From the NCBI GenBank assembly GCA_947581615.1, contig CANPVD010000053.1:89737-153736 (forward strand): 64,000 nt of DNA, read 5' to 3'. This document shows positions 1 through 18,569 of this stretch, one piece after another; position 1 is the stretch's first letter; each line of letters starts with the position of its first letter. Position numbers and translations under genes: made by a program. Origin of the DNA: Candidatus Humimonas hydrogenitrophica (lineage in GTDB: Bacteria; Gemmatimonadota; Gemmatimonadetes; Palauibacterales; Palauibacteraceae). The notes beneath the pieces are model-generated. The model saw only the letters and a program-made list of their open reading frames with translations. It was not told the DNA's origin and did no database searches.

Positions 1-437
1 ACACGGCGGGGGGAAACCTGGCGGGCTTCAAGGACACGGGCTGGCGCGCCTTCGGCGGCGCCAACTGGGCCTCCGACGACTGGTTCGCCAACGGCCGGTA
101 CCAGGCGGACATCGGGCCCGGCGCGGCGGACATGGGCGGAGACCTGTCCGCCGGGCGTCGCTTCGGCGGGAAGAGCTGGCTCGCCCTTCGAGCCACCTCC
201 ACCCGCAGCTTCGGGGAGTATCGGCTCGGTGACCAGCGGCTCACCGGCGCGGGGCTCATCGGGTCCGCTCCGGTCGGCGACCTCCTGTTCACGGGGAGCG
301 CGGGCTTCTACCGGCTGTCCTACACGGACCGGCCGGCGATCAAGGACTGGACGCAGTTCCGGATGTTCGTGGGAGTGGGATACCACTTCGGCAGCGAGCC
401 GACGGTCGCGTCGGTCCTCAAGGGGTACGGCCAATGA
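1..437 (+). CDS. 3' end of a possible outer-membrane beta-barrel protein; the reading frame runs off the window start
   Basis: The frame is open from position 3 to the stop at 437. The C-terminal region shows alternating hydrophobic and aromatic residues (FYRLSYTD, FRMFVGVGYHF) typical of beta-strands. The stop overlaps the start of the next cytochrome gene by ATGA. Confidence 0.35.
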   Translation, partial: TAGGNLAGFKDTGWRAFGGANWASDDWFANGRYQADIGPGAADMGGDLSAGRRFGGKSWLALRATSTRSFGEYRLGDQRLTGAGLIGSAPVGDLLFTGSAGFYRLSYTDRPAIKDWTQFRMFVGVGYHFGSEPTVASVLKGYGQ

Positions 438-2155
438 GCCTGCGCTGGCCAACACGAATCGTCCTGGCGCTCGCCTTCCTGACCCTGGCCGGCGGGCCCT
501 GGGCCGGGTCGCCCCTGACCGGCCAGGACACGACGGTCGTCCAACGCCCCTTCCCGCACGCCCGGCACGTCGGACTCTTCCCGACCTGCGACGGCTGTCA
601 CGCGGGGATCCTGAGCGGGGACTCGGCGAAGTGGCTCTCCGTGGGGCCCGAGTTCTGCCAGGTGTGCCACGATGGCGAGACGGTGAAGAAGATCGAGTGG
701 ACGACGCCCGAGCACCCTCGGACGAACCTGCACTTCACGCACGCCAAGCACGCGGCCGGATTCGAGCAGCTCGGGGCGCCGCCCGCGAAGTGCCAGACCT
801 GTCACCAGGCCGAAGGCGGCACGAAGCCCATGCAGGTGGTGATGGCCAGGCCGGCGCTGTGCGGGGCGTGCCACTCACCCGACCACCTGTCGCTCCAGAA
901 CGACTGCGCCACGTGCCACGATCCGCTCACCCGGGCGTCGAACCTGAGGACGTCCGACATCGCGGGCTTCCCCAAGCCCCCCTGGCACGATTCGGCCGAC
1001 TTCCTCTTCCAGCACGGAGCGGAGGCCTCCGCCTCGGGCGCGGTGTGCTCCGTGTGCCACGCCCGCCAGAGCTGCACCCGCTGCCACCTGAACGCGTCCC
1101 AGGTGGAGCCGATCCAGGCCCTCGGGCCGGATCCGCGCGTCGCACAGCTGGTCCGCGGGCGAGCGGGCCAGTGGCCCGAGCCGCCCAGCCATCGCGACCG
1201 GGACTGGGTCCTGTCCCACGGAGCGACGGCCCGGACCTCGCTGTCCACGTGCGCCGACTGCCACGCGGCCTCGAGCTGTGCGACCTGCCACCGCGGACCG
1301 CGGGCCGGGTTCCTTTCGCAGATGCCGGGGGCCGTCGAGGGAGGACCGTCCGGGGTGCGCATCCACGCGTCGCCGCCGGGGCACGGGCCGGGCTTCGCCA
1401 CCCAGCACGGGGCGACCGCGGCCTCGGGTGCCATCGACTGCTCCGCGTGTCACACGAAGGTCCAGTGCACGGCCTGCCATCGCGGGGGCGTGCCCTCCTC
1501 GCCGGCCGTCCACGCCCCCGGCACGGGCGGATCGGGAGGAGGGAACGAGCCAATGAGCCTCGGGAGGCCGAGCGCGCGGCCCGGGGAGCCGACGACGCCG
1601 AGGGACGAGCGTCTCCCGCTGCGGAGGCCCGAGCCGCGCCCGGTGGTGTGGTTCGCCTCGCTGCGGACGACCGTTCGGACCGGGCCACGAACCGTGCCGG
1701 ACACCACGCCCCCGACGTCCACGACCTCTCGAGGAAACGGAGGACAGGCGGGCCCGCGGACCGGCGGCTTCCACCCACCCGATTACGTGCTCCGACACGG
1801 CGCCGACGCCTTCTCGCGTCGAGTCCAGTGCTCGGAGTGCCATTCGGCCCAGGCCTTCTGCCTGACCTGCCACGAGAAGATGGGCATCGGGCGGGGAGGC
1901 ACGGCCGGCAGCCCCGCCTTCCACGATGCCGAGCCCAACTGGCTGATCGTGCACGGGCGGGCCGCCCGACAGAACCTGGAGACCTGCACCTCCTGTCACC
2001 AGCAGAGCTCCTGCCTGCGCTGTCACAGCGCGAAGTTCGGATTCCGCATCGACCCGCACGGTCCGGGCTTCGATCCCAACCGCATCGCCGACCGCAGCAC
2101 GATCTCCTGCGGAATCTGCCACTTCTCCATCCCCAAGGGCGGAGGCGGGGGCTGA
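434..2155 (+). CDS. 16-haem c-type cytochrome of the doubled-CxxCH type, with an N-terminal signal peptide or anchor
   Basis: There are 16 CxxCH motifs, several arranged as closely paired units (CSVCHARQSCTRCH, CADCHAASSCATCH, CSACHTKVQCTACH, CSECHSAQAFCLTCH, CTSCHQQSSCLRCH). The N-terminus is hydrophobic (IVLALAFLTLAGG). The middle of the protein contains a low-complexity Pro/Thr/Arg-rich linker. Confidence 0.85.
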   Translation: MSLRWPTRIVLALAFLTLAGGPWAGSPLTGQDTTVVQRPFPHARHVGLFPTCDGCHAGILSGDSAKWLSVGPEFCQVCHDGETVKKIEWTTPEHPRTNLHFTHAKHAAGFEQLGAPPAKCQTCHQAEGGTKPMQVVMARPALCGACHSPDHLSLQNDCATCHDPLTRASNLRTSDIAGFPKPPWHDSADFLFQHGAEASASGAVCSVCHARQSCTRCHLNASQVEPIQALGPDPRVAQLVRGRAGQWPEPPSHRDRDWVLSHGATARTSLSTCADCHAASSCATCHRGPRAGFLSQMPGAVEGGPSGVRIHASPPGHGPGFATQHGATAASGAIDCSACHTKVQCTACHRGGVPSSPAVHAPGTGGSGGGNEPMSLGRPSARPGEPTTPRDERLPLRRPEPRPVVWFASLRTTVRTGPRTVPDTTPPTSTTSRGNGGQAGPRTGGFHPPDYVLRHGADAFSRRVQCSECHSAQAFCLTCHEKMGIGRGGTAGSPAFHDAEPNWLIVHGRAARQNLETCTSCHQQSSCLRCHSAKFGFRIDPHGPGFDPNRIADRSTISCGICHFSIPKGGGGG

Positions 2156-2446: not shown

Positions 2447-2917
2447 ATGGTAGAGCCTACGGCCTCGCCGCTGGCCACGGACCCGCTGGCGTGGCGACCG
2501 GCCTTCGGGGAGTACGTCCTCGCCGGCAGTGTCGCCTTGCTGCTCCTGGGCGCCCTGTCGGCGGTCGTGCTGTACCTGATCCCTTCTGGACCGCTGCAGC
2601 TAGAGGAGCTCCAGCCGGCCTACCAGGTCGCGCCGGAGGCCAACTTCCCGGTCAACAGCAGTCGAATCGTCAACTGGGGAGACCAGGTCATCCTCGTCGT
2701 CCGCACCGGGGACCAGTCGTATTCCGCGCTGCAGGGCACGGCACCGACGGACGGCTGCATCCTGAACTGGAACGAGACGTCGCTCCGCATCGTCTCACCC
2801 TGCACCCACCTGGTCTACGACCTGCGTGGCAACGTGGTCCGGGGCCTCTCGACCATCCCCCTCCAGCACTACCCGGTGTTCATCCGCGATGGCGTCGTCT
2901 ACGTGGCGAGGCCGTAG
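2447..2917 (+). CDS. Small membrane-anchored, Rieske-like protein in the iron-sulfur-subunit position upstream of cytochrome b, with an incomplete [2Fe-2S] ligand set
   Basis: It has an N-terminal transmembrane helix (VALLLLGALSAVVLYLI). The C-terminal beta-rich domain contains DGCILNW and SPCTHLVYD, which resemble Rieske box I (CTHLGC), but there is no CPCHGS box II. The gene lies directly upstream of cytochrome b with a 1-nt gap. Confidence 0.5.
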   Translation: MVEPTASPLATDPLAWRPAFGEYVLAGSVALLLLGALSAVVLYLIPSGPLQLEELQPAYQVAPEANFPVNSSRIVNWGDQVILVVRTGDQSYSALQGTAPTDGCILNWNETSLRIVSPCTHLVYDLRGNVVRGLSTIPLQHYPVFIRDGVVYVARP

Positions 2918-2918
2918 A

Positions 2919-4202
2919 ATGATGTCCCGAGACCCGAAGGCCGCCAGGGAATGGTTCGTCCGCTTGTGGGCGGACCTGAAGGCCAGCACGGACGCGAGCC
3001 TGCTGGTGATCCTCCGCTTCGTGGGCCTCCTGTACGGGCCGCTCGACACCCGACTTCCGATCGGCAAGGCCTTTCGTAAGGCTCTGCGGCACCGGCTCTC
3101 GCCCGAAGCGGGGTGGCGTCAAGCGTTCGGCGGAATCGCGTATCTGCTGTTCATCATCCTTGTGGTCACGGGCGTGCTCCTGTCCTTCTACTACCGTCCT
3201 TCCACGCAGGAGGCCTACCAGAGCATCCAGCACATCGTGTCCGGTGTCTCCTTCGGCTGGCTCATGCGCGACCTGCACGTGTGGGCGGCGAACCTCGTGG
3301 TCCTGGGAGCGCTGCTCCACATGGCCCGCGTGTTCTTCGGCGCGGCCTACAAGCCTCCGCGTGAGACCAACTGGATCGTGGGCGTGCTCCTGCTGTTCAG
3401 CGTGTTCGCGTTCGGCGCGACGGGCTACCTCCTGCCATGGGACCAGTGGTCGTACTGGACCGTGACCGAGGGACTGGACATCCTCGCCCGCACGCCCCTC
3501 GTGGGCGGCTGGCTGGTCAGGATCCTGCGGGCCGATCCGATCGTGTCCGGCGCCACCTTGAGCCGGTTCTTCGCCATCCACGTGATCGTGCTCCCGTGGC
3601 TCGTGCTCGGCCTCCTGGCCCTGCACTTCGCCCTGGTACGGAAGCACGGCGTCGCGCCACGCGTGAGCGCGAACCGTACGGGCAGGACGGGCGTTCCGTT
3701 CTTCCCGTACCACTTCCTGCGGATGGTGATCACCGGAACGCTCGTCGTGGCCGTGGCCCTGACGGCCGCCCTCCTGTTCCCGCGTCCGGTCGCCGCTCCG
3801 GCCAACCCCGCGCAGCCCCCGGGAATGCTCTTCTCGACCTGGATCCTGGCCGACGTCTCTCGAGCCCTGATCTACTACCTGGGCGGCTGGGGCTTCGGCG
3901 CGTTCCTGCTGCTCGGAGCCGGAATGGTGCTCCTGCCCATCTTCGATCGCTCTCCAGAGCGTCGGCTCCGCCGCCGACCGATCGTGGCCGCCCTGGGCGT
4001 CCTGTTCTTCCTGACCTTCGCGACCGCCTGGGGGGCCGGGTGGCGACTCCGCTCCATTCCGACCACGACGTCGGGTGAGCTGACGCCGTTCCAGAAGCAG
4101 CCCACCGGAGCTACGCCGGGCGCTCCCCTGCCGAGTATCGCGCCTGCCAGCCGGCCGGCGACGTCCGGGTCGGACACGACGAATTCCGGGGGTGCGCCGT
4201 GA
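2919..4202 (+). CDS. Cytochrome b of a bc/b6f-type quinol oxidoreductase (b6-type His spacing)
   Basis: The helix B motif is HVWAANLVVLGALLH (His-His spacing of 14) and the helix D motif is HVIVLPWLVLGLLALH (spacing of 15, as in b6). The Qo-like motif PWDQWSYW is present. There are multiple transmembrane helices and a low-complexity C-terminal tail. Confidence 0.9.
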   Translation: MMSRDPKAAREWFVRLWADLKASTDASLLVILRFVGLLYGPLDTRLPIGKAFRKALRHRLSPEAGWRQAFGGIAYLLFIILVVTGVLLSFYYRPSTQEAYQSIQHIVSGVSFGWLMRDLHVWAANLVVLGALLHMARVFFGAAYKPPRETNWIVGVLLLFSVFAFGATGYLLPWDQWSYWTVTEGLDILARTPLVGGWLVRILRADPIVSGATLSRFFAIHVIVLPWLVLGLLALHFALVRKHGVAPRVSANRTGRTGVPFFPYHFLRMVITGTLVVAVALTAALLFPRPVAAPANPAQPPGMLFSTWILADVSRALIYYLGGWGFGAFLLLGAGMVLLPIFDRSPERRLRRRPIVAALGVLFFLTFATAWGAGWRLRSIPTTTSGELTPFQKQPTGATPGAPLPSIAPASRPATSGSDTTNSGGAP

Positions 4203-5494
4203 GGGCCGCCGTGCTGACCGCGCTGCTCACTGCCACCTTCGTCGCTGCACCAGCGGCGGGAAGGCCGGCTGCGGCTCGCCCTGCCGGACGTACCGCTCCG
4301 ACGCTTCCGGCGCAGGTCCCCGGAGCCACGGCCGACACCGCCAACGGCTGCCTGGCATGCCACGCGGCACAGCGGCGAGCGGCGACCGAAGGGATCCACG
4401 CGGAGCACGGCGTCACCTGCGTGAGCTGCCACGGCGGTGACCCGGCCGCCGTCACGCTGCCCCGGGGACACAGCGGGCACTTCGTCGGCACGCCGGACAA
4501 GGCGGCCACGGCGGAGCTGTGCGGCTCGTGCCACTCGGATCCCGACCGGATGCGGGAATACGGCCTGCCCACAGGACAGCTGGCCCAGTTCCGCTCCAGC
4601 AAGCACGGGCAACTGCTCTTCGGCCAGCACAACAACGACGTGCCGACATGCACGGACTGCCACGGCACGCACATCATCTACCCGCCCTACGATGCCCGTA
4701 GCCGCGTCTATCCGACGAACATCCCGGGGACCTGCGCGAGCTGCCACTCGGACCCGAAGCTCATGGCGAAGTACCACATTCGCACGGACCAGTTCGCGCA
4801 GTTCCGTAACAGCGCGCATGGCGTAGCCCTGTTCCAGGACCAGAACTTCGCGGCGCCCACCTGCGTCGGTTGTCACGGCGCGCACTCCGAGCTGCCGCCC
4901 ACGGTGACCGAGATCGCCAGCGTATGCGGTCGGTGTCACGTGCTCGTCGAGCAGGAGTTCGCGAAGGGACCGCATGGGGCCGCCGCCCGCGCCGGGAAGC
5001 TGCCGGGCTGCCTGGCGTGCCACAGCAACCACGGCACCGAACGCGTCCCGGCGGACAGCATCAGCGCCACGTGCGACCGGTGCCACGGATCCGACTCCCA
5101 GGTTCACCAGTTCGCGGTCGACATCCAGCACCGCGTCGTGCAGGCCACGGCGGACATCCAGTCGGCCGAGCGGGCCATCGACCAGATGGCCGCGGCCGGC
5201 GAGCGCGTCGGCTACTATCGATTCCGGTACAAGTCGGGCCTGACGTACTTCCGCGAGATCGCCCAGAAGCAGCACCGCCTCAACCTGGACACACTCGACG
5301 ACCTCGCTCGTCGGGTGCGGTCGGTGTCGATCGACCTGGACTCACGGGCGAAGGGCACCCAGGAAAGTCGTTGGGAGCACAAGCTCCTGCTCCTCCCGGT
5401 GTGGTTCCTGTCGCTGTCCGCGGTCGTGCTCGCTCTGCTGGCGCTGCGCGGTCTCCGGAAGAGGGACCGGGACTCGGACTCTTCCGAGACGTAG
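4199..5494 (+). CDS. 9-haem c-type cytochrome with a C-terminal transmembrane anchor
   Basis: There are 9 CxxCH motifs, many in the form CxxCHSDP...Y...F..S.HG. A C-terminal hydrophobic helix (LLLLPVWFLSLSAVVLALLAL) is present. The GTG start overlaps the cytochrome b stop as GTGA. Confidence 0.85.
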   Translation: MRAAVLTALLTATFVAAPAAGRPAAARPAGRTAPTLPAQVPGATADTANGCLACHAAQRRAATEGIHAEHGVTCVSCHGGDPAAVTLPRGHSGHFVGTPDKAATAELCGSCHSDPDRMREYGLPTGQLAQFRSSKHGQLLFGQHNNDVPTCTDCHGTHIIYPPYDARSRVYPTNIPGTCASCHSDPKLMAKYHIRTDQFAQFRNSAHGVALFQDQNFAAPTCVGCHGAHSELPPTVTEIASVCGRCHVLVEQEFAKGPHGAAARAGKLPGCLACHSNHGTERVPADSISATCDRCHGSDSQVHQFAVDIQHRVVQATADIQSAERAIDQMAAAGERVGYYRFRYKSGLTYFREIAQKQHRLNLDTLDDLARRVRSVSIDLDSRAKGTQESRWEHKLLLLPVWFLSLSAVVLALLALRGLRKRDRDSDSSET

Positions 5495-5497
5495 GCT

Positions 5498-7522
5498 ATG
5501 TGGCCGACCATACGCCGGCGGATCGCTCAATGGGGCATCGTCCTGCTCCCGATCGTCATCCTGGCGGTCATTCTGATCAGCGTAGGCACGGTCGGCTTCG
5601 TGGAGGTCTCCAGCCAGCCATGGTTCTGCAAGAGCTGCCACATCATGAAGCCGTACTACCAGTCGTGGTCCACCTCATCACACCGCGACGTGCCCTGCAT
5701 CAAGTGCCACATCCCGCCCGGGGTGAAGTCCGAGGTGAGCCAGAAGATCCAGGCCGCCAACATGGTGGTGAAGTACTTCACCGGCGCCTACGATACGCGG
5801 CCGTGGGCGGAGATCAGCGACGCTTCCTGTCTGCGATCGGGCTGCCACGCCAGCCGTCTCATCGAGGGTGCGGTGGACTTCCACGGAGTCCGGTTCGATC
5901 ACGCCCGGCATCTGGGGGAGATTCGGCGTGGCATGCAGCTCCACTGCACGAGCTGCCACTCGCAGATCGTGCAGGGAACACACATCGCCGTGACGGAGGG
6001 CACCTGCTTCCTGTGTCACTTCAAGGACCGGCCGGCTGACCAGCCCCTGGGCGGCTGCACCGGGTGCCACCCATCGCCGCCGAGGGTCACCTCTCCCGAG
6101 GGATTCGTGATCGATCACCCCCAGTTCGTACGGGACCGGATCGACTGCCTGTCCTGCCACAACAAGGTCACGCACGGAACGGGTAACGTCGACGAAGCGC
6201 GCTGCGTGAGCTGCCACAACGAGCCCGAGCGTCTGGCCAAGATCAACGAGACCACGCTCCTGCACACGGTTCACGTCACGCAGCACAACATCGCGTGCAT
6301 CCAGTGCCACACCCCCATCGAGCACCGCATCGTTTCTCTCACCACGACCGTGGAGCTGGACTGCCGGAGCTGCCACAAGTCCGTGCACGTGGATCAGCAG
6401 AAGATGTTCGCCGGCATCGGGGGACACGGGGTGGAGCGCACGCCGAGCTCCATGTACAAGGCACGCGTCTCGTGCGTGGCGTGTCACGACCAGGCCAGGA
6501 GCCTTCCGGGACACGACACGGTCAACGTGGCCAGCGAGTCCTCGTGCCTCTCCTGTCACGGCATCAAGTACGCCAACGTGCTGCCCGGCTGGCAGAAGGA
6601 GATGAAGCGGAAGGTGGGCCTCGTAGCCCCGGTGGTGAGCGCGGCCCGATCCGCCGCGGCGACGGTCCCCCTGGCGCGACGTAACGTGGCCGACAGTCTC
6701 CTCGGTCTCGCGCAGTCGAACGTCGAGTTCGTGCGCGAGGGCAAGGGCGCCCACAACGTGGTCTATGCGGATCAGCTCCTCCGCGCGGCCCTCAGGCTCG
6801 TGCGGCAGGCCGTGCAGGAGGGCCGCCTGCCGTACCGGATGCCGACCGTCGATCTCGGCCCGCAGGTGAGCGAGACCATGTGCCTGCAGTGCCACCTGGG
6901 CATCGAGCAGCAGAAGGGCACGTTCCAGGGCGCGTCGTTCGATCACACGGCCCACGTGTTGCGCGCGGGGCTGCAGTGTGGTGACTGCCACACGCCGTTC
7001 TCGAACCACGGCGGCATCACCCTCGCGTCGACCGCGAGCTGCAACGCCTGTCATCATCCGGTCGTGCAGCCCCGGAACTGCGCCACCTGCCATGAAGGTC
7101 CGGGTGGGGCGCCGTCCCAACCCATCACCCTGCCCCAGGGGACCTTCCCGCACGGGCCCCACATCGAGGCCAACCTCGCCTGTACGGCGTGCCACACGGC
7201 GCCGATGATGAGCGCGCGGGACCTCCAGTGTGACAACTGCCATGCGCAGCACCACCAGCCGACCGTCACCTGCCTGAACTGCCACCGGGGCGGAGTCCTG
7301 GCCCTGCACGATCGCCAGAACCACGTCCTGTGTGCGCAGTGTCATACCTCGGTCCCGGCGTTGACGCACTGGACGCGGCAGGTGTGCACGGTGTGCCACG
7401 CGGACAAGACCGACCACAACCCCGGACGGCCGTGCAACGTGTGCCACCGGGTGCCGGCCATGGGAACGACCCGCGCGGCCGTGCCGGCCGGCGGCGGCGA
7501 GGAATCGCCTCAATTCCACTAG
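5498..7522 (+). CDS. NapC/NirT/NrfH-family quinol dehydrogenase head fused to a large multihaem extension (about 21 CxxCH motifs plus one CX4CH)
   Basis: An N-terminal transmembrane helix is followed by CKSCH...PCIKCH, the NapC/NrfH signature. A further 19 CxxCH motifs and one CLRSGCH motif follow. The protein is 674 aa, and there is a 4-nt gap from the preceding gene. Confidence 0.85.
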   Translation: MWPTIRRRIAQWGIVLLPIVILAVILISVGTVGFVEVSSQPWFCKSCHIMKPYYQSWSTSSHRDVPCIKCHIPPGVKSEVSQKIQAANMVVKYFTGAYDTRPWAEISDASCLRSGCHASRLIEGAVDFHGVRFDHARHLGEIRRGMQLHCTSCHSQIVQGTHIAVTEGTCFLCHFKDRPADQPLGGCTGCHPSPPRVTSPEGFVIDHPQFVRDRIDCLSCHNKVTHGTGNVDEARCVSCHNEPERLAKINETTLLHTVHVTQHNIACIQCHTPIEHRIVSLTTTVELDCRSCHKSVHVDQQKMFAGIGGHGVERTPSSMYKARVSCVACHDQARSLPGHDTVNVASESSCLSCHGIKYANVLPGWQKEMKRKVGLVAPVVSAARSAAATVPLARRNVADSLLGLAQSNVEFVREGKGAHNVVYADQLLRAALRLVRQAVQEGRLPYRMPTVDLGPQVSETMCLQCHLGIEQQKGTFQGASFDHTAHVLRAGLQCGDCHTPFSNHGGITLASTASCNACHHPVVQPRNCATCHEGPGGAPSQPITLPQGTFPHGPHIEANLACTACHTAPMMSARDLQCDNCHAQHHQPTVTCLNCHRGGVLALHDRQNHVLCAQCHTSVPALTHWTRQVCTVCHADKTDHNPGRPCNVCHRVPAMGTTRAAVPAGGGEESPQFH

Positions 7523-7539: not shown

Positions 7540-8883
7540 ATGCGCTCCGTGGTTGGATGGATCTGGCTCCTGGGCGCTTTCGCGCCCGGGCTCGTCGGAG
7601 TCCGGACGGTGTCGGCGCAGGCGACCAGGCCGGCGTCCACGCAGGTCGTGGAGTGCACCAAGTGCCACGCCGATCACGACCTCCTCGCCGCCAACGCGAC
7701 CGGTCCGCGGCGGGACTCGGCCCTCTACGTGACCGGTGCGGTCCTGGACAGCTCCGTGCACCGATCGTTGCAGTGCACGGACTGCCACCGGGGCTTCGAG
7801 GCAGGCTTCCCCCATCAGGTCAGCCAGGTGGTGGTCCCCTGCTCCACCTGCCACGAGAAGGAGGGTCGGGACTGGGCGGCCTCCATTCACGCCCGGAACG
7901 CGGAAATGGTCGGGGATGCGCCCACCTGCGTCGGGTGCCACGGTAGCCACGGGATCCGTGCCGCCACCGACCCCCGGTCGCCGATCTACCCCCTCAACGT
8001 GGCCGGACTGTGTAGCCGCTGCCACGCGGACCCCCGTATCATCGGGCGCTACTTCACGGGGCCGGGCGACCAGGAGGCCCGCATCGCCGCGACCGCCTTC
8101 CCGAAGAGCGTCCACGGCATCGCGCTCACCCGCGACGGGCTCGTGGTTTCGGCCACCTGCTCGGACTGCCACCGGGCGCACCTCATCCTGCCGCCCGATT
8201 CGGCGCGGTCCTCGGTCAATCGGGCCAACATCCCGCGGACCTGCGGGAAGTGCCACGCCGGCGTGGTCAAGGTGTTCGAGGCCTCCGCCCACGGGCCCGA
8301 TTACCCGCCGCAGCCCGGGATCGCCGAGGGGCACCCGCGGCCGGTGTGCATCGACTGCCACTCCGCGCACGAGATCGTCCGCGCCGACCGGCCGGCCTGG
8401 CAGCGCAGCACGGTCCGGAAGTGCGGGAGCTGCCACGAGCACCTGTACGAAACCTACTTCGAGACCTACCACGGCCAGGTGACGCAGCTGGGATCCAACC
8501 TCGCCGCCAAGTGCAGCGACTGCCACACGGCGCACGACATGCGCTCCCCCACGGACCCCAGGTCCACGGTGTTCGCGGCCAACCTGGTCCACACCTGCAG
8601 CCAGTGCCACGAGGGCGCCAACACCAACTTCGTCAAGTACTACGCGCACGGTGACCCCACCCAGCGCACGCGGTACCCGCGCCTGTACTGGCCGTGGCTG
8701 CTCATGACCGGGCTGCTGGTGAGCGTCATGGCCTTCTTCGTGATCCACAGCGTGCTGTGGCTGATCCGGAACGGCATCGAGCACCGGCGGGGCGGACACG
8801 GCTCCGACGGACCCGGGGGCGGAGTGCCGGGCGGCGGCGCACCCGCGGCGGAATCCCCCACGAGCGGAGGGAGCGCGTCATGA
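7540..8883 (+). CDS. 11-haem c-type cytochrome with a C-terminal transmembrane anchor; paralog of the 9-haem protein
   Basis: There are 11 CxxCH motifs and the same CxxCH.DP...Y module seen in gene 4199-5494. A strong ribosome-binding site (GGAGGGAGG) lies upstream. A C-terminal transmembrane helix (WPWLLMTGLLVSVMAFFVI) is present. Confidence 0.85.
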   Translation: MRSVVGWIWLLGAFAPGLVGVRTVSAQATRPASTQVVECTKCHADHDLLAANATGPRRDSALYVTGAVLDSSVHRSLQCTDCHRGFEAGFPHQVSQVVVPCSTCHEKEGRDWAASIHARNAEMVGDAPTCVGCHGSHGIRAATDPRSPIYPLNVAGLCSRCHADPRIIGRYFTGPGDQEARIAATAFPKSVHGIALTRDGLVVSATCSDCHRAHLILPPDSARSSVNRANIPRTCGKCHAGVVKVFEASAHGPDYPPQPGIAEGHPRPVCIDCHSAHEIVRADRPAWQRSTVRKCGSCHEHLYETYFETYHGQVTQLGSNLAAKCSDCHTAHDMRSPTDPRSTVFAANLVHTCSQCHEGANTNFVKYYAHGDPTQRTRYPRLYWPWLLMTGLLVSVMAFFVIHSVLWLIRNGIEHRRGGHGSDGPGGGVPGGGAPAAESPTSGGSAS

Positions 8884-9731
8884 GCAGGCGGGCGATGGAC
8901 GCCGCGGGCCGAGGCGCGGGCCCGTACATCCGGCGCTTCACCGGCTTCCAGCGGACCCTTCACGTCATGGTGATCGTGTCCTTCCTGGGGCTGGTCGCCA
9001 CCGGGCTGCCGCTGCGCTTCGCGGCCGCGCCCTGGGCCCGCGGGGTGATGGACCTGTTCGGGGGCCCGGTGGCCGCGGGCCTGATTCACCGCATGTGCGC
9101 GATCATCACCTTCGGCTACTTCTTCGCGCACGTCATCCAGATCACCTACCGGATGCTGAGAGTCGAGGGACCGAAGAAGCTGCTGTGGGGGCCGGACTCC
9201 ATGGTCCCCCAGCCCAGGGACATCCGCGACCTCATCCAGATGTTCAAGTGGTTCTTCGGGAAGGCACCGCACCCGGAGTTCGAGCGGTTCAGCTACATGG
9301 AGAAGTTCGACTACTGGGCGGTGTTCTGGGGAGTGGCCATCATCGGGACCTCGGGGCTCTTCCTGTGGTTCCCGACCTTCTTCGCGCACTTCATGCCGGG
9401 GTGGGTGTTCAACATCGCGACCATCGTGCACGGCGACGAGGCCCTGCTGGCCACGTCGTTCATCTTCACGATCCACTTCTTCAACGTGCACCTGCGGCCG
9501 GAAAAGTTCCCGATCGACACCGTGATCTTCACGGGCCGGGCCACCACGGAGTACATGCAGGAGGAGCACGGCCTCGAGTACGAGCGGCTCCGGCGCGACG
9601 GCCGGGTCGAGGAGCGGGTGGTGCCGTCGGCCTCGCGCGCGGCCTACCTGTGGTCGGTGACGGTGGGCTTCATCGCCGTCGGGATCGGTACGATGCTCAT
9701 CGTCCTCGTCCTGTGGGCTCTCCTGGCATGA
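8880..9731 (+). CDS. Dihaem b-type cytochrome membrane subunit, FdnI/HydC (Ni_hydr_CYTB)-like
   Basis: There are five predicted transmembrane helices with conserved His residues inside the helices (RTLHVMVI, GLIHRMC, FFAHVIQ, IVHGDEA, FTIHFFNVH). The start overlaps the upstream cytochrome stop as ATGA. Confidence 0.8.
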   Translation: MSRRAMDAAGRGAGPYIRRFTGFQRTLHVMVIVSFLGLVATGLPLRFAAAPWARGVMDLFGGPVAAGLIHRMCAIITFGYFFAHVIQITYRMLRVEGPKKLLWGPDSMVPQPRDIRDLIQMFKWFFGKAPHPEFERFSYMEKFDYWAVFWGVAIIGTSGLFLWFPTFFAHFMPGWVFNIATIVHGDEALLATSFIFTIHFFNVHLRPEKFPIDTVIFTGRATTEYMQEEHGLEYERLRRDGRVEERVVPSASRAAYLWSVTVGFIAVGIGTMLIVLVLWALLA

Positions 9732-9735
9732 TGCA

Positions 9736-11520
9736 GTGCGACGCCCCGACGTAGTCCTCGTCCACCCTCCCAGCGTCTACGACTTCCGTCGCAGGGCGAT
9801 CTTCTACGGCCCGATCAGCGACGTGATACCGTCGTCGACGGTGTTCGAGATGTACCCCATCGGCTTCGCGACCCTGGCGGCCTTCCTCCGGCGCCACGGG
9901 CGGCGCGTGCGCATCGTGAACCTCGCCCTGCGCATGATGCGGAGCCGGCGCTTCCGGCCCGAGCGCTACCTGCGGCGACTCGAGCCCCGGCTGTTCGGCA
10001 TCGACCTCCACTGGCTGCCCCACGCGCACGGCGGTCACGAGGTCGCGGCCCTCCTCAAGCGGCTGCACCCCGACATTCCGATCGTGTTCGGCGGTATCTC
10101 GGCCAGCTACTTCCACGAGGAGCTCATCCGCGACCCTTCCGTGGACTTCGTCCTGCGCGGCAGCGTCACGGAGCCCTGCCTCCTGGAGCTCGTCCGGGAG
10201 CTGGAGGGAGATCGCCGATTCGAGCGGGTCCCGAACCTCACCTGGAAGCAGGACGACCGGGTGAGAGTCAATCCGGCCTCCTTCGTGCCCCTGTCCTTCG
10301 ACGATCTCGACTACGATCTGGGCTACATGATCGGGCAGGTGGTGGGGCGCCTGGACTTCTGGACGAACGTCCCGTTCCACGCCTGGTGGCGGCACCCGAT
10401 CACCGCCGTGTTCACCGTGCGCGGCTGCGGAAGGGGCTGCGTGACCTGCGGCGCCTCGGAGGAAGCCTTCCGCGGCTTCATGCCCGGCATGCATCCCCTC
10501 CTGAGGAGCCCCGCGTCCATCGCCCGCCAGGTCCGGGACCTGGCCGAGCTCACGCGCGCCCCGATCTTCCTGGTGGGGGACATCAACGACGGCGGGCCCA
10601 AGTACGCCGAGGCCGTCGTCGAGGCCCTGAGAGCCACCGGCGTCTCCAACCGACTCGTGTTCGAGTTCTTCCGCCCCCCGCCGGGGGCGTTCGTGGCGCA
10701 CGTCGAAGCCTGCCTGCCGCATTGGGGCGCCGAGCTCTCACCGGAGAGCCACCACGAGGAGATACGGGCGAGGCTGGGCAAGGCCTCCTACACCAACGCG
10801 GAGCTGGAAGAGGGGATCGAGACGATCCTGGGGGGACGCTGCGAGCAGCTCGACCTGTTCTACATGATCGGGCTCCCGGGACAATCCTACCGCCACGTCA
10901 TGACCACCGTGGATGCCATCGAGGCGATCTTCCGACGCCTGGACGCGCGCGTGTCCGCCTTCATCACGCCCATGGGCCCGTTCATCGATCCGGGGAGCGT
11001 CGGCTTCGAGCACCCCGAAGCCACCGGCTACCGGCTGCGCGCCCACACCCTGGCCGAGCACCGGGCGCTCCTCGAGCAGGGGGACTGGGAGTCGATCCTC
11101 AACTACGACACCGACGCCATGACCCGGACGGAGATCGTGGACGCCACCTACGACGCCGCCGAGCGCCTCAACGACCTCAAGCTGCGCTACGGACGGATCG
11201 AGCCCGCCCGCGCCGCCGGCGTGGCCCGGCGCCTGACGGAGGCGCGTGCGCTCCGCCGCCGCATCCGGGAGGCGCAGGGCCGGCTCGACCCGGAGGCCCG
11301 GCTCGCGTTGCTGGGAGAGATCCGGGCCTACTCGGAGTCCACCGTCAACGACAAGGCCGAGCTGTTTCCGCCGGGAGCCTTCCTGCGAAACTTCCGCCTG
11401 GGCGGGATCCTGCGGCTCCTGGCGAGAGATGTCCTGCGCCGCGGAACTCGCCGACCCGAAACTCGCCGACTCGGGTCCGCCCTCCAGGACGCCCCGGCCG
11501 AGACCGCCTCCACGCCCTGA
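9736..11520 (+). CDS. B12-binding-domain radical SAM protein
   Basis: An N-terminal B12-binding-like domain is followed by the CGRGCVTC (CxxxCxxC) radical SAM motif. The GTG start lies 4 nt after the cytochrome b stop. Confidence 0.8.
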   Translation: MRRPDVVLVHPPSVYDFRRRAIFYGPISDVIPSSTVFEMYPIGFATLAAFLRRHGRRVRIVNLALRMMRSRRFRPERYLRRLEPRLFGIDLHWLPHAHGGHEVAALLKRLHPDIPIVFGGISASYFHEELIRDPSVDFVLRGSVTEPCLLELVRELEGDRRFERVPNLTWKQDDRVRVNPASFVPLSFDDLDYDLGYMIGQVVGRLDFWTNVPFHAWWRHPITAVFTVRGCGRGCVTCGASEEAFRGFMPGMHPLLRSPASIARQVRDLAELTRAPIFLVGDINDGGPKYAEAVVEALRATGVSNRLVFEFFRPPPGAFVAHVEACLPHWGAELSPESHHEEIRARLGKASYTNAELEEGIETILGGRCEQLDLFYMIGLPGQSYRHVMTTVDAIEAIFRRLDARVSAFITPMGPFIDPGSVGFEHPEATGYRLRAHTLAEHRALLEQGDWESILNYDTDAMTRTEIVDATYDAAERLNDLKLRYGRIEPARAAGVARRLTEARALRRRIREAQGRLDPEARLALLGEIRAYSESTVNDKAELFPPGAFLRNFRLGGILRLLARDVLRRGTRRPETRRLGSALQDAPAETASTP

Positions 11521-16508: not shown

Positions 16509-18569
16509 TCACAGGCCGATCCCCCGCAGCGTGAGGTTCAGCACGAATCCGACGCCGAACGCGAACGTCACCGCGAACGCGAAGATCCCGGCCGCGATCT
16601 TCGGTCCCCGCTCCTTCCACATCATGAGGAACTGCGCCACACAGGGTACGAAGAGGGTGAGCGTCACCGCCGACACGAGGAGTCCGACCATGTCCAGGGC
16701 GCCCGTCCGCTGGAGCTCGTACAGGCCGGCGGCCCCGTAGTCGCGCCGGAAGAAACCGAGCAGGAACACCGACGCCGTCTGCCGGGGGAGGCCCAGCGCG
16801 CCCACCACCGGGTGGAGGAGGTCCAGGACCCTGCCCAGGAGCCCGGTGACCTGGCCCGCCCACAGGAGCACGCTGGCCAGCATGAACAGCGGAATGACCT
16901 CCAGCAGGTACCAGTGCAGCCGCGTGGCGGTCTTCCGGACCACGTTGGACGCGCGCGGCACGCGCAGGGGAGGTAGCTCCATGTGGAAGGACGCCGAACG
17001 CCCCGGCAGGACCCGCGCCCCCACCGCCCCGATCAAGAGGAAGGTGCCGGCCAGGACCGCCACCCACAGCCCGAGTGCCACGGGCTGCCCCGAGAGGATG
17101 GCCAGGATCACACCGAGCTGGGCCGAGCAGGGGATCGCCAGGGCGAGGAGCACCGTGGCCAGGATCCTCTCGCGCCGCGTCTCGAGCGTCCGGGCGACCA
17201 TGGTGGCCATGGTGTCGCACGCGAACCCGAGCACGATGGGGATCACCGCCTGTCCGTTGAGGCCGATCCTCTTGAACAGCCGATCCACGAGCAGGGCCAG
17301 CCGCGGGAGGTAGCCGCTGTCCTCGAGCACGGAGAAGAACAGGAAGAAGGTGGCCACGATCGGCAGGATGATGGCGATCGCATAGCGGAGGCCCAGGGTG
17401 AGGAGCCCGTAGTCGCCGACCCACAGCCCCCGTAGCCACGGCCAGGGAATCCCCCGGAACAGGCCCTCGAGGAACGGATTCACGTGACCCAGGAAGAGGG
17501 AGCGCTCCAGCCAGTCCACCAGGATTCCGGCCCCGAAGTGTCCCACGAACTCGTACAGCCCCAGCCACAGGACCACCAGTAGCACCGGGATCCCCGGCAG
17601 GGGCCGCCCCAGCCAGCGGCCGAGCCTCTCGGCCACCCTCACCCGGCGTTCACCGGTGGCCTCGAGCACGTCCCCGGCCACGGAGCGCGCCACCTCGTGA
17701 CGCTCCACCGCCGACCGGTAGGCCGTCCCGTCTCGCGTCCCGGCCGCGGCCCGGCGCAGAGCCTCCAACGCCCGCCGTCCTCCGTCCGTCTCGGCGGCCT
17801 CCACCATCGCCCGCGTGTCCTCATCTCCCTGGAGGAGGAAGGACGCGATGGCTCGCCGGGGCATGGCATAGCGGCCGGACAGGGCGCCCTCCAGGGCCTC
17901 GATCGCCGCGGCCACGTCGGGGCGCCGCCCCAGCGGCTCGGGCGGCTCACCCGCGCGGATGGCTCCGAGGATCGCCCGCTCCAGCCCTTCCACCCCCTGC
18001 CCCGTCACCGCCACGATCGGGACGACGTGCAGGCCGAGTCGACCTGCGAGGAGGTCCGGTCTGAGCTCCAGGCCGAGACGTCCGAGCTCGTCCACCATGT
18101 TCAGGGCGAGCACGAGGGGCTTTCCGAGCTCCATCAGTTCGAGCGTCAGGGGAAGGGACCGTGCCACGCAGCGAGCCTCGACGACGTGGACCAGGGCGTC
18201 GATGCCCTCCTCGAGCACCAGTCGCCGGGAGACGCGCTCCTCTTCGGTGGTGGGCGACAGCGAGTAGAGCCCGGGCGTGTCCACGACGCGGACGACGTGT
18301 CCGTCGAGTCGCCCCACCCCGTATGTCACCTCGACGGACGTTCGTGGATAGTTGGAGACGGTGACGTAGCGCCCGGTGAGGCGGTGGAAGAGCGTGCTCT
18401 TGCCGACGTTGGGCGCCCCGACGAGAGCCACGCGCCAGGCGGCCTCCTCCGGCGAGGTCGCGGTCGGGCCCGGCGCCCTCCCTTCCGGCCGGGACGGAGG
18501 GCACATGGGACAGGCTCTCGACCCCTCGAGGGCGGTGCGTGCGATTGGAGCGTTCGGTCGCAGCCTCAT
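16509..18569 (-). CDS. feoB: Ferrous iron transporter FeoB
   Basis: The GTPase G1 motif GAPNVGKSTLF is followed by a multi-transmembrane permease domain. A roughly 45-aa N-terminal extension containing CPMCPP precedes the GTPase domain. Confidence 0.9.
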   Translation of the reverse strand: MRLRPNAPIARTALEGSRACPMCPPSRPEGRAPGPTATSPEEAAWRVALVGAPNVGKSTLFHRLTGRYVTVSNYPRTSVEVTYGVGRLDGHVVRVVDTPGLYSLSPTTEEERVSRRLVLEEGIDALVHVVEARCVARSLPLTLELMELGKPLVLALNMVDELGRLGLELRPDLLAGRLGLHVVPIVAVTGQGVEGLERAILGAIRAGEPPEPLGRRPDVAAAIEALEGALSGRYAMPRRAIASFLLQGDEDTRAMVEAAETDGGRRALEALRRAAAGTRDGTAYRSAVERHEVARSVAGDVLEATGERRVRVAERLGRWLGRPLPGIPVLLVVLWLGLYEFVGHFGAGILVDWLERSLFLGHVNPFLEGLFRGIPWPWLRGLWVGDYGLLTLGLRYAIAIILPIVATFFLFFSVLEDSGYLPRLALLVDRLFKRIGLNGQAVIPIVLGFACDTMATMVARTLETRRERILATVLLALAIPCSAQLGVILAILSGQPVALGLWVAVLAGTFLLIGAVGARVLPGRSASFHMELPPLRVPRASNVVRKTATRLHWYLLEVIPLFMLASVLLWAGQVTGLLGRVLDLLHPVVGALGLPRQTASVFLLGFFRRDYGAAGLYELQRTGALDMVGLLVSAVTLTLFVPCVAQFLMMWKERGPKIAAGIFAFAVTFAFGVGFVLNLTLRGIGL

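Follow-up and report, generated by a model that had tools for sequence, protein, structure and literature searches.

A Rieske-Like Gene Upstream of Cytochrome b

Rieske/cytochrome b complexes are defined by a [2Fe-2S] cluster, which acts as the first-electron acceptor in the bifurcated Q-cycle reaction. A stretch of 64,000 nucleotides from Candidatus Humimonas hydrogenitrophica, hereafter called the window (contig CANPVD010000053.1 of assembly GCA_947581615.1, positions 89,737 to 153,736 of the forward strand), encodes a protein that takes the place of the Rieske subunit in such a complex. The gene (2447..2917, + strand) codes for 156 residues, with an N-terminal transmembrane (TM) anchor and a head predicted to have a Rieske fold, devoid of the cluster ligands. 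The protein is called pseudo-Rieske in what follows. An earlier note on this DNA had described this open reading frame (ORF) as separated by a single nucleotide from a cytochrome b gene, and this is indeed the case, since its TAG stop lies at 2915-2917 and the cytochrome b ATG at 2919. The complex is conserved, and it evidently dispenses with the iron-sulfur step by which complexes of this kind are defined.

NCBI MDP2529039.1 has exactly the sequence of the window protein; it comes from a Candidatus Palauibacterales metagenome-assembled genome (MAG) and is named “Rieske (2Fe-2S) protein.” Relatives of pseudo-Rieske bear in JGI the name “nitrite reductase/ring-hydroxylating ferredoxin subunit.” Either name implies the presence of a cluster, which the protein appears unable to bind, and the NCBI name is misleading for the family as a whole.

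Family-wide results refer to a set of 83 members (the window protein included), taken as the orthologs. They come from the window and from the loci of a species scan, in which one genome of each GTDB species was scanned for the sequence pattern, with a yield of 80 pseudo-Rieske loci. A search of 5.8 billion clustered proteins returned 69 close relatives. All scan loci belong to Gemmatimonadota MAGs, save one bin labelled Steroidobacteraceae (Gammaproteobacteria). In this bin (L035, JAUMBX010000139.1), the family member lies on a 7-kb contig of low coverage and probably reflects a binning error rather than horizontal transfer. Cytochrome b statistics are based on 73 full-length partners of family members and on 13 cytochromes b lying beside a canonical paralog of pseudo-Rieske. 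The set of canonical paralogs consists of 16 intact Rieske proteins encoded at most 10 kb from family members.

Fold of the Pseudo-Rieske Head

A structural model was computed with AlphaFold2 (AF2) from an alignment of 39 sequences. It comprises a single helix (residues 20-44) and, after it, nine beta strands, in line with the single N-terminal TM helix and beta-rich domain that had been read from the sequence in the earlier note. The helix, as assigned by DSSP on the model, is encoded at 2504..2578 (+) and lies within a hydrophobic segment covering residues 19-50. The predicted local distance difference test (pLDDT) score is 86 overall, with means of 91-95 for the 10-residue blocks over residues 61-150 and of 88 for residues 151-156.

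The top Foldseek match of the AF2 model is the soluble domain of the Chlorobaculum tepidum Rieske protein (8HN2, chain 8hn2_A; E 4.8e-9, TM-score 0.82, root mean square deviation 1.4 Å, 98 columns). The 49 other matches listed are all Rieske-fold proteins, with the NirD structures 4AIV and 3C0D among them. Sequence comparison leads to the same proteins. A phmmer search of the PDB sequences returns b6f-type Rieske proteins, 8hn2_A being the best with an E-value of 2e-10. The E-value improves to 4e-13 when the family profile is used, and the profile alignment then extends through the TM helix of cyanobacterial PetC. The Foldseek and PDB sequence matches thus speak against a protein with no Rieske fold at all, and the head of pseudo-Rieske is predicted to be a Rieske fold, a three-layer beta sandwich to which a cluster-binding subdomain belongs.

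The generic profiles match this protein only below their thresholds. Its best Pfam match is Rieske_2 (PF13806), with 23.9 bits for a cut-off of 27. The profile hidden Markov model (HMM) of the Rieske family (PF00355), which had been suggested as a check, does give a match, but its 14.7 bits lie below the 20.3-bit threshold. NCBIfam PetC is matched with an E-value of 2e-8 and 33.6 bits, the cut-off being 154. Such sub-threshold Pfam scores could be those of a decaying pseudogene, or of an unrelated small membrane protein encoded upstream of cytochrome b by chance. However, the ratio of non-synonymous to synonymous substitution rates (dN/dS) is about 0.1 (0.10-0.12 against close orthologs), no break interrupts the ORF in the 83 loci, which represent about 80 species, the gene order is fixed, with the 1-nt gap in the window, and the Rieske fold is modeled with high confidence. 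This explanation is hardly credible, and the pseudogene idea was rejected on the grounds of the low dN/dS and the intact ORFs.

Cluster Ligands and Disulfide Cysteines

In the bovine iron-sulfur protein (ISP), box I reads C139-T-H141-L-G-C144 and box II reads C158-P-C160-H161-G-S. The cluster ligands are C139, H141, C158, and H161, and a disulfide links C144 to C160. The corresponding positions of the window protein were mapped by six alignments: the HMMER alignment to four solved Rieske proteins, the comparison of the family profile with the PDB, two hmmalign tallies, and BLASTP alignments to the canonical paralog of a 93%-identical relative and to the nearest canonical Rieske protein found. 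All six are concordant. The box I remnant is A99-P-T101-D-G-C104 (2741..2758, +; canonical C-T-H-L-G-C), which retains Cys104 but neither the ligand Cys nor the ligand His. The box II remnant is S117-P-C119-T120-H121-L (2795..2812, +; canonical C-P-C-H-G-S), where again the ligands are lost and Cys119 is kept. The four ligand positions are thus all substituted: Cys by Ala99, His by Thr101, Cys by Ser117, and His by Thr120.

This mapping modifies the picture drawn in the earlier note, in which the CTHL of SPCTHLVYD was considered as box I-like, with GCILNW upstream. Both motifs are present in the sequence. The alignments, however, place CTHL at the box II position, where its resemblance to box I is a chance one, and the disulfide cysteines that were called absent are C104 (in “GC”) and C119 (in “SPC”). 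The ligand set is degenerate, as was claimed, but it lacks all four ligands and not only two. In the alignments to solved Rieske proteins, four correctly placed Cys/His ligands are nowhere to be seen.

The same substitutions, or similar ones, are found throughout the family, so that the missing ligands are conserved absences (83/83), a point that the earlier note had proposed to check by aligning orthologs. Position 99, a ligand Cys in canonical proteins, is Ser in 55 orthologs and Ala in 28, and position 117, the other ligand Cys, is Ser in all 83. The two ligand His are replaced by more variable residues, namely T/S/A/I/V and others at position 101 and S/T/R/G/N/D/K at position 120, His being found in none of the 83 at either place. 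In sum, 0/83 orthologs have a Cys or His at any of the four ligand positions. The next residue, position 121, which is Gly or Asn in canonical proteins, is Tyr in 57 orthologs, His in 19, Phe in 5, and Asp in 2. The two cysteines at positions 104 and 119, 15 residues apart, are in contrast invariant (83/83 each); they align with the canonical disulfide pair, and a disulfide is predicted between them. Fixed as it is in 83 orthologs under purifying selection, this degeneracy is not a matter of chance.

The earlier note had also envisaged that the ligands might be supplied in an unconventional way. A functional [2Fe-2S] or other Fe-S center could be built within the protein from the two invariant cysteines, with His121 of the window protein as a further candidate. 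Nevertheless, both cysteines align with the disulfide pair, exactly two cysteines are present in 79 of the 83 proteins, and His121 of the window's CTHL is a His in 19 orthologs only. Every Cys and His column was counted in the 83 orthologs, and neither a hidden alternative ligand set nor a conserved His column came out of it; in nine proteins the aligned region is devoid of His. Also missing is the Tat motif, which a domain already carrying its cofactor needs for export. As no alternative four-ligand set is available, a center with unconventional ligands is very improbable. Judged from its sequence, pseudo-Rieske very probably binds no Rieske cluster.

Export Signal

In Rieske proteins, the cluster is inserted in the cytoplasm, and the Tat pathway is required for export of the folded domain. 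An RRxF motif stands directly before the TM helix in 16/16 canonical paralogs. What is left of it in the window protein is W16-R-P-A-F20 (2492..2506, +), from which the second Arg has been lost. In a pairwise alignment, the window R17-P-A-F falls on the R-R-R-F of the Rieske protein encoded at an Armatimonadota locus (L087, described below). Family members have the consensus W-x-P-G-F-x-E-Y-L-L-G-G in the corresponding region. An RR pair adjoins the TM helix in at most two of the 83 members (L073 and L078), and eight further matches of the RR regular expression fall in over-extended ORF starts. This loss is consistent with a domain that carries no cofactor and would be inserted unfolded by Sec/YidC and then oxidized to its disulfide form in the periplasm.

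The Partner Cytochrome b

The gene that follows (2919..4202, +) encodes a 427-residue cytochrome b made of fused b6-like and subunit IV-like domains, with seven predicted TM segments. Pfam Cytochrome_B is matched with an E-value of 9.8e-48, and the best NCBIfam match is ExtP, at 219.5 bits, under its cut-off of 290. A cytochrome b lies downstream of pseudo-Rieske on the same strand in 81/83 loci. His120, His134, His221, and His236, the axial ligands of hemes bL and bH, are conserved in 73/73 family cytochromes b, so that both b-heme sites are kept. Among the 120 matches listed in a homolog search with this cytochrome b, only close Gemmatimonadota relatives appeared, and no distant clades.

The Qo site is altered in its turn. 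The position of the PEWY motif was mapped against the subunit IV of the Armatimonadota locus, which is a separate protein and aligns without gaps, and against the cytochrome b of the Gemmatimonadota paralog. It is occupied in the window by S306-T-W-I309 (STWI; 3834..3845, +), in a gapless alignment to PEWY. The family motif is [S/T/A][T/S]W[V/I], with Pro or an acidic residue in 0/73 sequences, and PEWY is retained in 13/13 cytochromes b lying beside a canonical paralog. The window cytochrome b is a genuine family member, but one without a recognized Qo motif. A survey of Qo motifs (PMC4122944) gives PEWY, PDWY, PVWY, PPWF, APWY, GPWY, PPWY, and PAWY, and none like S-T-W-V. A family-specific residue, Asp312, is found four residues past the conserved Trp of the former PEWY in 68/73 cytochromes b. 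Having neither an Fe-S acceptor nor PEWY, the complex should be unable to run a bifurcated Q cycle, and would no longer perform the Rieske-dependent bifurcated reaction.

The C-terminal tail of the same protein, residues ~375-427 (window 4043-4199), is of low complexity, rich in Pro, Thr, Ser, and Gly, and predicted to be periplasmic. The canonical paralog has no such tail, and family members show little conservation in it.

A canonical Rieske/cytochrome b operon is found at most 10 kb from the pseudo-Rieske module in 16/83 loci (L002, L004, L043, L055, L057, L058, L060, L064, L067, L069, L074, L075, L078, L079, L080, and L083), which means that the organisms concerned keep both versions. In the 93%-identical relative (L002), it is located at L002:1-3581 (-), about 9 kb upstream and divergent, a place that falls beyond the limits of the window. 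The canonical operons encode a Rieske protein with SRRxF, CTHLxC, and C[AP]CHNG motifs, a PEWY cytochrome b, and multiheme as well as c-type cytochromes. In one of the assemblies of the close relative (L001:315-788, -), the canonical Rieske paralog is frameshifted past box I (CTHLDCIVQYRPRPAPDLVCLPQRAL...), either through an assembly error or through a real disruption.

The nearness of such operons raises the question of a cluster provided in trans: a canonical Rieske protein from the paralogous operon, or from another one, could serve the family cytochrome b, pseudo-Rieske being then an extra component. Yet no canonical copy lies nearby in most loci, and where one does, the canonical Rieske protein always precedes a PEWY-bearing cytochrome b of its own. 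In addition, the partners of pseudo-Rieske have lost PEWY without exception, and the PetC-like TM anchor of pseudo-Rieske would fill the slot that an incoming Rieske subunit needs. A cluster in trans is accordingly improbable.

Conservation of the Former Cluster Loops

The regions that hold the cluster in canonical proteins are the most conserved parts of pseudo-Rieske. Mean column entropy amounts to 0.86 bits in box I, 0.69 in box II, and 0.79 in the “Pro loop,” whereas the TM helix has 1.72 and the beta-sheet segment 58-96 has 1.35. It follows that the tip of the head domain is still doing something.

One way to account for this is that the pocket once occupied by the cluster now serves as a new functional site, of catalytic or regulatory importance. 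The site could be a lid handling quinol or protons by means of Ser99/Asp102/Ser117/Ser-Thr120/Tyr-His121, it could bind Ca2+ or a mononuclear metal through O-donor ligands, or it could specifically dock a c-heme domain. Besides the low entropy of the three loops (0.69-0.86 bits), such a site would explain why Ser117 is invariant, why Asp102 is present in 81/83 orthologs and an aromatic residue (Tyr/His/Phe) at 121 in 81/83, and why the partner cytochrome b has acquired Asp312. On the other hand, these residues match no known motif, positions 101 and 120 are variable, and the same conservation could equally stem from the packing of cluster-free loops or from a protein–protein interface. A new functional site is rather unlikely, although it is the main rival of the structural role proposed below.

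Multiheme Cytochromes of the Operon

Downstream of cytochrome b, the operon continues with multiheme cytochromes. The first (4199..5494, +) has nine CXXCH motifs, a signal peptide, and a C-terminal TM anchor, and the start of its gene shares 4 nt with the end of the cytochrome b gene. It is present in 77/83 loci. Its signal peptide and C-terminal anchor correspond to the topology of cytochrome c1 or f, and it is likely the c1/f-equivalent subunit. Next comes an NrfH/NapC-like multiheme cytochrome c (5498..7522, +), with an N-terminal TM anchor, 21 CXXCH motifs, and one CX3CH, which is recognized by Pfam Cytochrom_NNT (5.7e-12) and NCBIfam NrfH (2e-14) and is found in 71/83 loci. In this giant protein, a quinol-dehydrogenase-type module is fused to a long heme wire, within the same operon as cytochrome b. 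The core order, pseudo-Rieske, cytochrome b, nine-heme cytochrome, and NrfH-like cytochrome, is kept in 71-81/83 loci.

An eleven-heme cytochrome c (7540..8883, +) with a signal peptide and a C-terminal TM anchor follows in 76/83 loci, and then a membrane cytochrome b of the b561/Ni_hydr_CYTB type (8880..9731, +; Pfam PF01292, 30.7 bits) in 55/83. Upstream of pseudo-Rieske, a further cytochrome c (434..2155, +) carries 16 CXXCH motifs and a signal peptide; its synteny is weaker (25/83 loci). A protein with a B12-binding domain is encoded directly 3' of the b561-type cytochrome (window 9736-11520). It is annotated as radical-SAM-like in relatives and recurs near the cluster in 20/83 loci. The remainder of the window, from 9.7 to 64 kb, contains unrelated genes (peptidases, transporters, FeoB, urocanase). 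The FeoB ferrous-iron transporter (16509-18569, -) lies about 7 kb from the multiheme cluster; it may matter should the cluster handle iron, or be there by coincidence.

Relatives and Origin

A profile search for relatives of pseudo-Rieske, covering 1.84 billion representatives, gave a sharply divided result. Only 14 representatives reach at least 109 bits, and these have no Cys or His at any ligand position that they cover, one of them being a fragment that ends before box II. From 88 bits downward, the matches are overwhelmingly Rieske proteins of the canonical CxH...CxxH type. No graded series of intermediates with a partial ligand set was found among these 1.84 billion representatives.

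The best canonical match (P0085) comes from the operon of an Armatimonadota MAG, the locus L087 already mentioned. Its Rieske protein has RRRF, CTHLGC, and CPCHGA. It is followed by a cytochrome b6 with the CxGG motif (CMGG), a subunit IV with PEWY, a multiheme cytochrome of 411 residues, and an NrfH-like giant multiheme cytochrome, and it is preceded by a porin and further multiheme cytochromes. The window pseudo-Rieske shares 33% identity with this Rieske protein (E 1e-19). It is more distant from the canonical paralog of its own lineage, with 28% identity (E 2e-11). The nine-heme cytochrome and the multiheme cytochrome at the same position in L087 are 35% identical end to end (E 3e-65). Together with the ExtP match of cytochrome b, this synteny and these identities lead us to regard the Gemmatimonadota module as a derived form of an Ext-like operon encoding Rieske, b6, subunit IV, and multiheme proteins. 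In the derived module, b6 would have been fused with subunit IV, while the cluster ligands and the Tat motif, as well as the CxGG cysteine and PEWY, would have disappeared.

Other Rieske-like proteins with altered boxes were met in these searches. A separate family of ~216 residues (P0094, P0098, P0101, P0103, P0116, P0121, P0144, P0181, and P0199) has an extended box I of the form C-T-H-x-x-x-C. Several of its members have Tyr or Phe in place of the box I His (CSY, CTY, CTF), and one protein has CPCC in box II. The family may represent another set of natural ligand variants. Degenerate examples also occur sporadically (P0088, P0106, P0161, P0178, and P0188; L084 and L085), such as CPR...CPCD and DPVHGC...GPCT. 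There is no cytochrome b neighbor beside P0188, and the contigs of two degenerate Rieske proteins, P0088 and P0075, are too short to judge the cytochrome b neighborhood.

Proposed Role of the Pseudo-Rieske Subunit

We propose, with a probability of about 0.65, that pseudo-Rieske is a non-redox structural subunit in a remodeled, non-bifurcating complex of cytochrome b and multiheme cytochromes c. The protein would be anchored in the membrane, with its Rieske-fold head facing the periplasm and no [2Fe-2S] cluster bound. The TM helix and the disulfide-stapled head would clamp the cytochrome b dimer, and the head would cap or shape the former Qo crater, or else dock the nine-heme cytochrome. Electrons would pass directly between the quinone pool, the b hemes, and the membrane-anchored multiheme cytochromes c. 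The flow could go either way, i.e., from quinol oxidation toward electron export or in reverse, and the quinone site could be a remodeled Qo site or a site on the n side. The complex would in this manner take part in a heme-rich electron-transfer chain, periplasmic or extracellular. A bc-type complex running without a functional Rieske cluster was one of the two possibilities raised in the earlier note, and it is the one supported by the absence of ligands and of alternative Cys/His residues and with the loss of the Tat motif and PEWY.

Several points weigh against this proposal. The cd-loop motif GYLLPWDQ.YW of the Qo pocket is retained in the family cytochrome b, and some quinol chemistry may thus take place at the former Qo site. 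The invariant Ser117, the near-invariant Asp102, and the aromatic residue at 121 could form a new functional site. The operon also encodes an NrfH-like quinol dehydrogenase, i.e., a second membrane module. Finally, every organism that carries the gene is an uncultured MAG, and it is from genomic sequences that we infer the structural role and the electron path of the complex.

Some of these features can be accommodated in a more specific and more tentative proposal. Throughout the phylum Gemmatimonadota, the iron-sulfur step and the PEWY proton-exit residue would have been discarded jointly in a “Rieske-dead” descendant of a Rieske/cytochrome b complex, and the conserved tip of the head, together with the new Asp of the ef loop, would form a new Qo-site chemistry: a non-bifurcating quinol/quinone turnover through the b hemes into the membrane-anchored multiheme cytochromes. 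This is possible, if somewhat unlikely. If true, pseudo-Rieske would be an active part of a new quinone site and not a fossil.

The family amounts to a lineage-wide natural knock-out, in which the fold, the disulfide, the anchor, and the b hemes are kept and the ligands, the Tat motif, and PEWY are discarded. It shows which parts of a Rieske subunit are needed for non-redox reasons, such as assembly, dimer clamping, and pocket shaping, and what a cytochrome b of the bc type is still capable of once bifurcation is lost. It also points to an unrecognised module connecting the quinone pool to multiheme cytochromes in abundant uncultured Gemmatimonadota of soils and sediments, which matters when extracellular or metal electron transfer is predicted from metagenomes. 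In metabolic reconstructions, the annotation as “Rieske (2Fe-2S) protein” would inflate the counts of complex III.

Comparison with Known Systems

No description of a cluster-less Rieske subunit beside cytochrome b was found in the searchable literature, including PMC4122944, PMC5600118, PMC10469786, and PMC12954380. The closest structural relatives are the b6f-type Rieske proteins (PetC; 8HN2), with which pseudo-Rieske shares the fold, the N-terminal TM anchor followed by a head, the slot directly upstream of cytochrome b, the disulfide cysteines, and the C-terminal motif YD..G..V.G...PL. It differs from them by the absence of the four ligands and of the Tat motif, by scores below the Pfam and NCBIfam thresholds, and by the replacement of GP in the “Pro loop” by GL(T/S). 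Pseudo-Rieske descends from a b6f-type Rieske subunit but departs from that family in its defining features, namely ligands, HMM scores above threshold, and Tat.

NirD, the small subunit of assimilatory nitrite reductase (PF13806), has a Rieske fold; many NirD proteins carry no cluster, and the subunit serves as a non-redox partner. This cluster-less Rieske fold provides the closest functional analogy for pseudo-Rieske. NirD is however soluble and cytoplasmic, has no TM anchor, and has NirB as partner, whereas pseudo-Rieske is membrane-anchored, is modeled on bc-type Rieske proteins that face the periplasm, and has cytochrome b as partner. Its 23.9 bits on PF13806 remain under the threshold of 27, and nirB is not among its neighbors.

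In gene content, the module is most similar to L087 and, by NCBIfam similarity, to Geobacter ExtO-ExtP-ExtQ. With L087 it shares the order of a Rieske-type protein, a cytochrome b, a C-terminally anchored multiheme cytochrome c of ~410-430 residues, and an NrfH-like giant. Unlike the Gemmatimonadota module, L087 keeps RRRF, CTHLGC/CPCHGA, CMGG, and PEWY, and its b6 and subunit IV are split. The Geobacter Ext proteins, which form a selenite/tellurite-reduction module, are related but not equivalogs, as judged by 219.5 bits for a cut-off of 290 with ExtP and 21.3 bits for a cut-off of 150 with ExtQ. ExtO bears the annotation of a Rieske Fe-S protein (PMC5877670), while pseudo-Rieske has no cluster ligands.

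The Geobacter Cbc complexes (CbcL, CbcBA), to which the earlier note had referred, likewise combine b-type and multiheme c-type cytochromes, lead from the quinone pool to the periplasm, and have no Rieske cluster. Several of them use unrelated b-type cytochromes, and we know of no Rieske-fold subunit in any of them. The likeness thus holds for the missing cluster and stops at the fold, which is kept and strongly conserved here: the Gemmatimonadota module combines a genuine cytochrome b of the b6/bc1 family with a degenerate Rieske partner.

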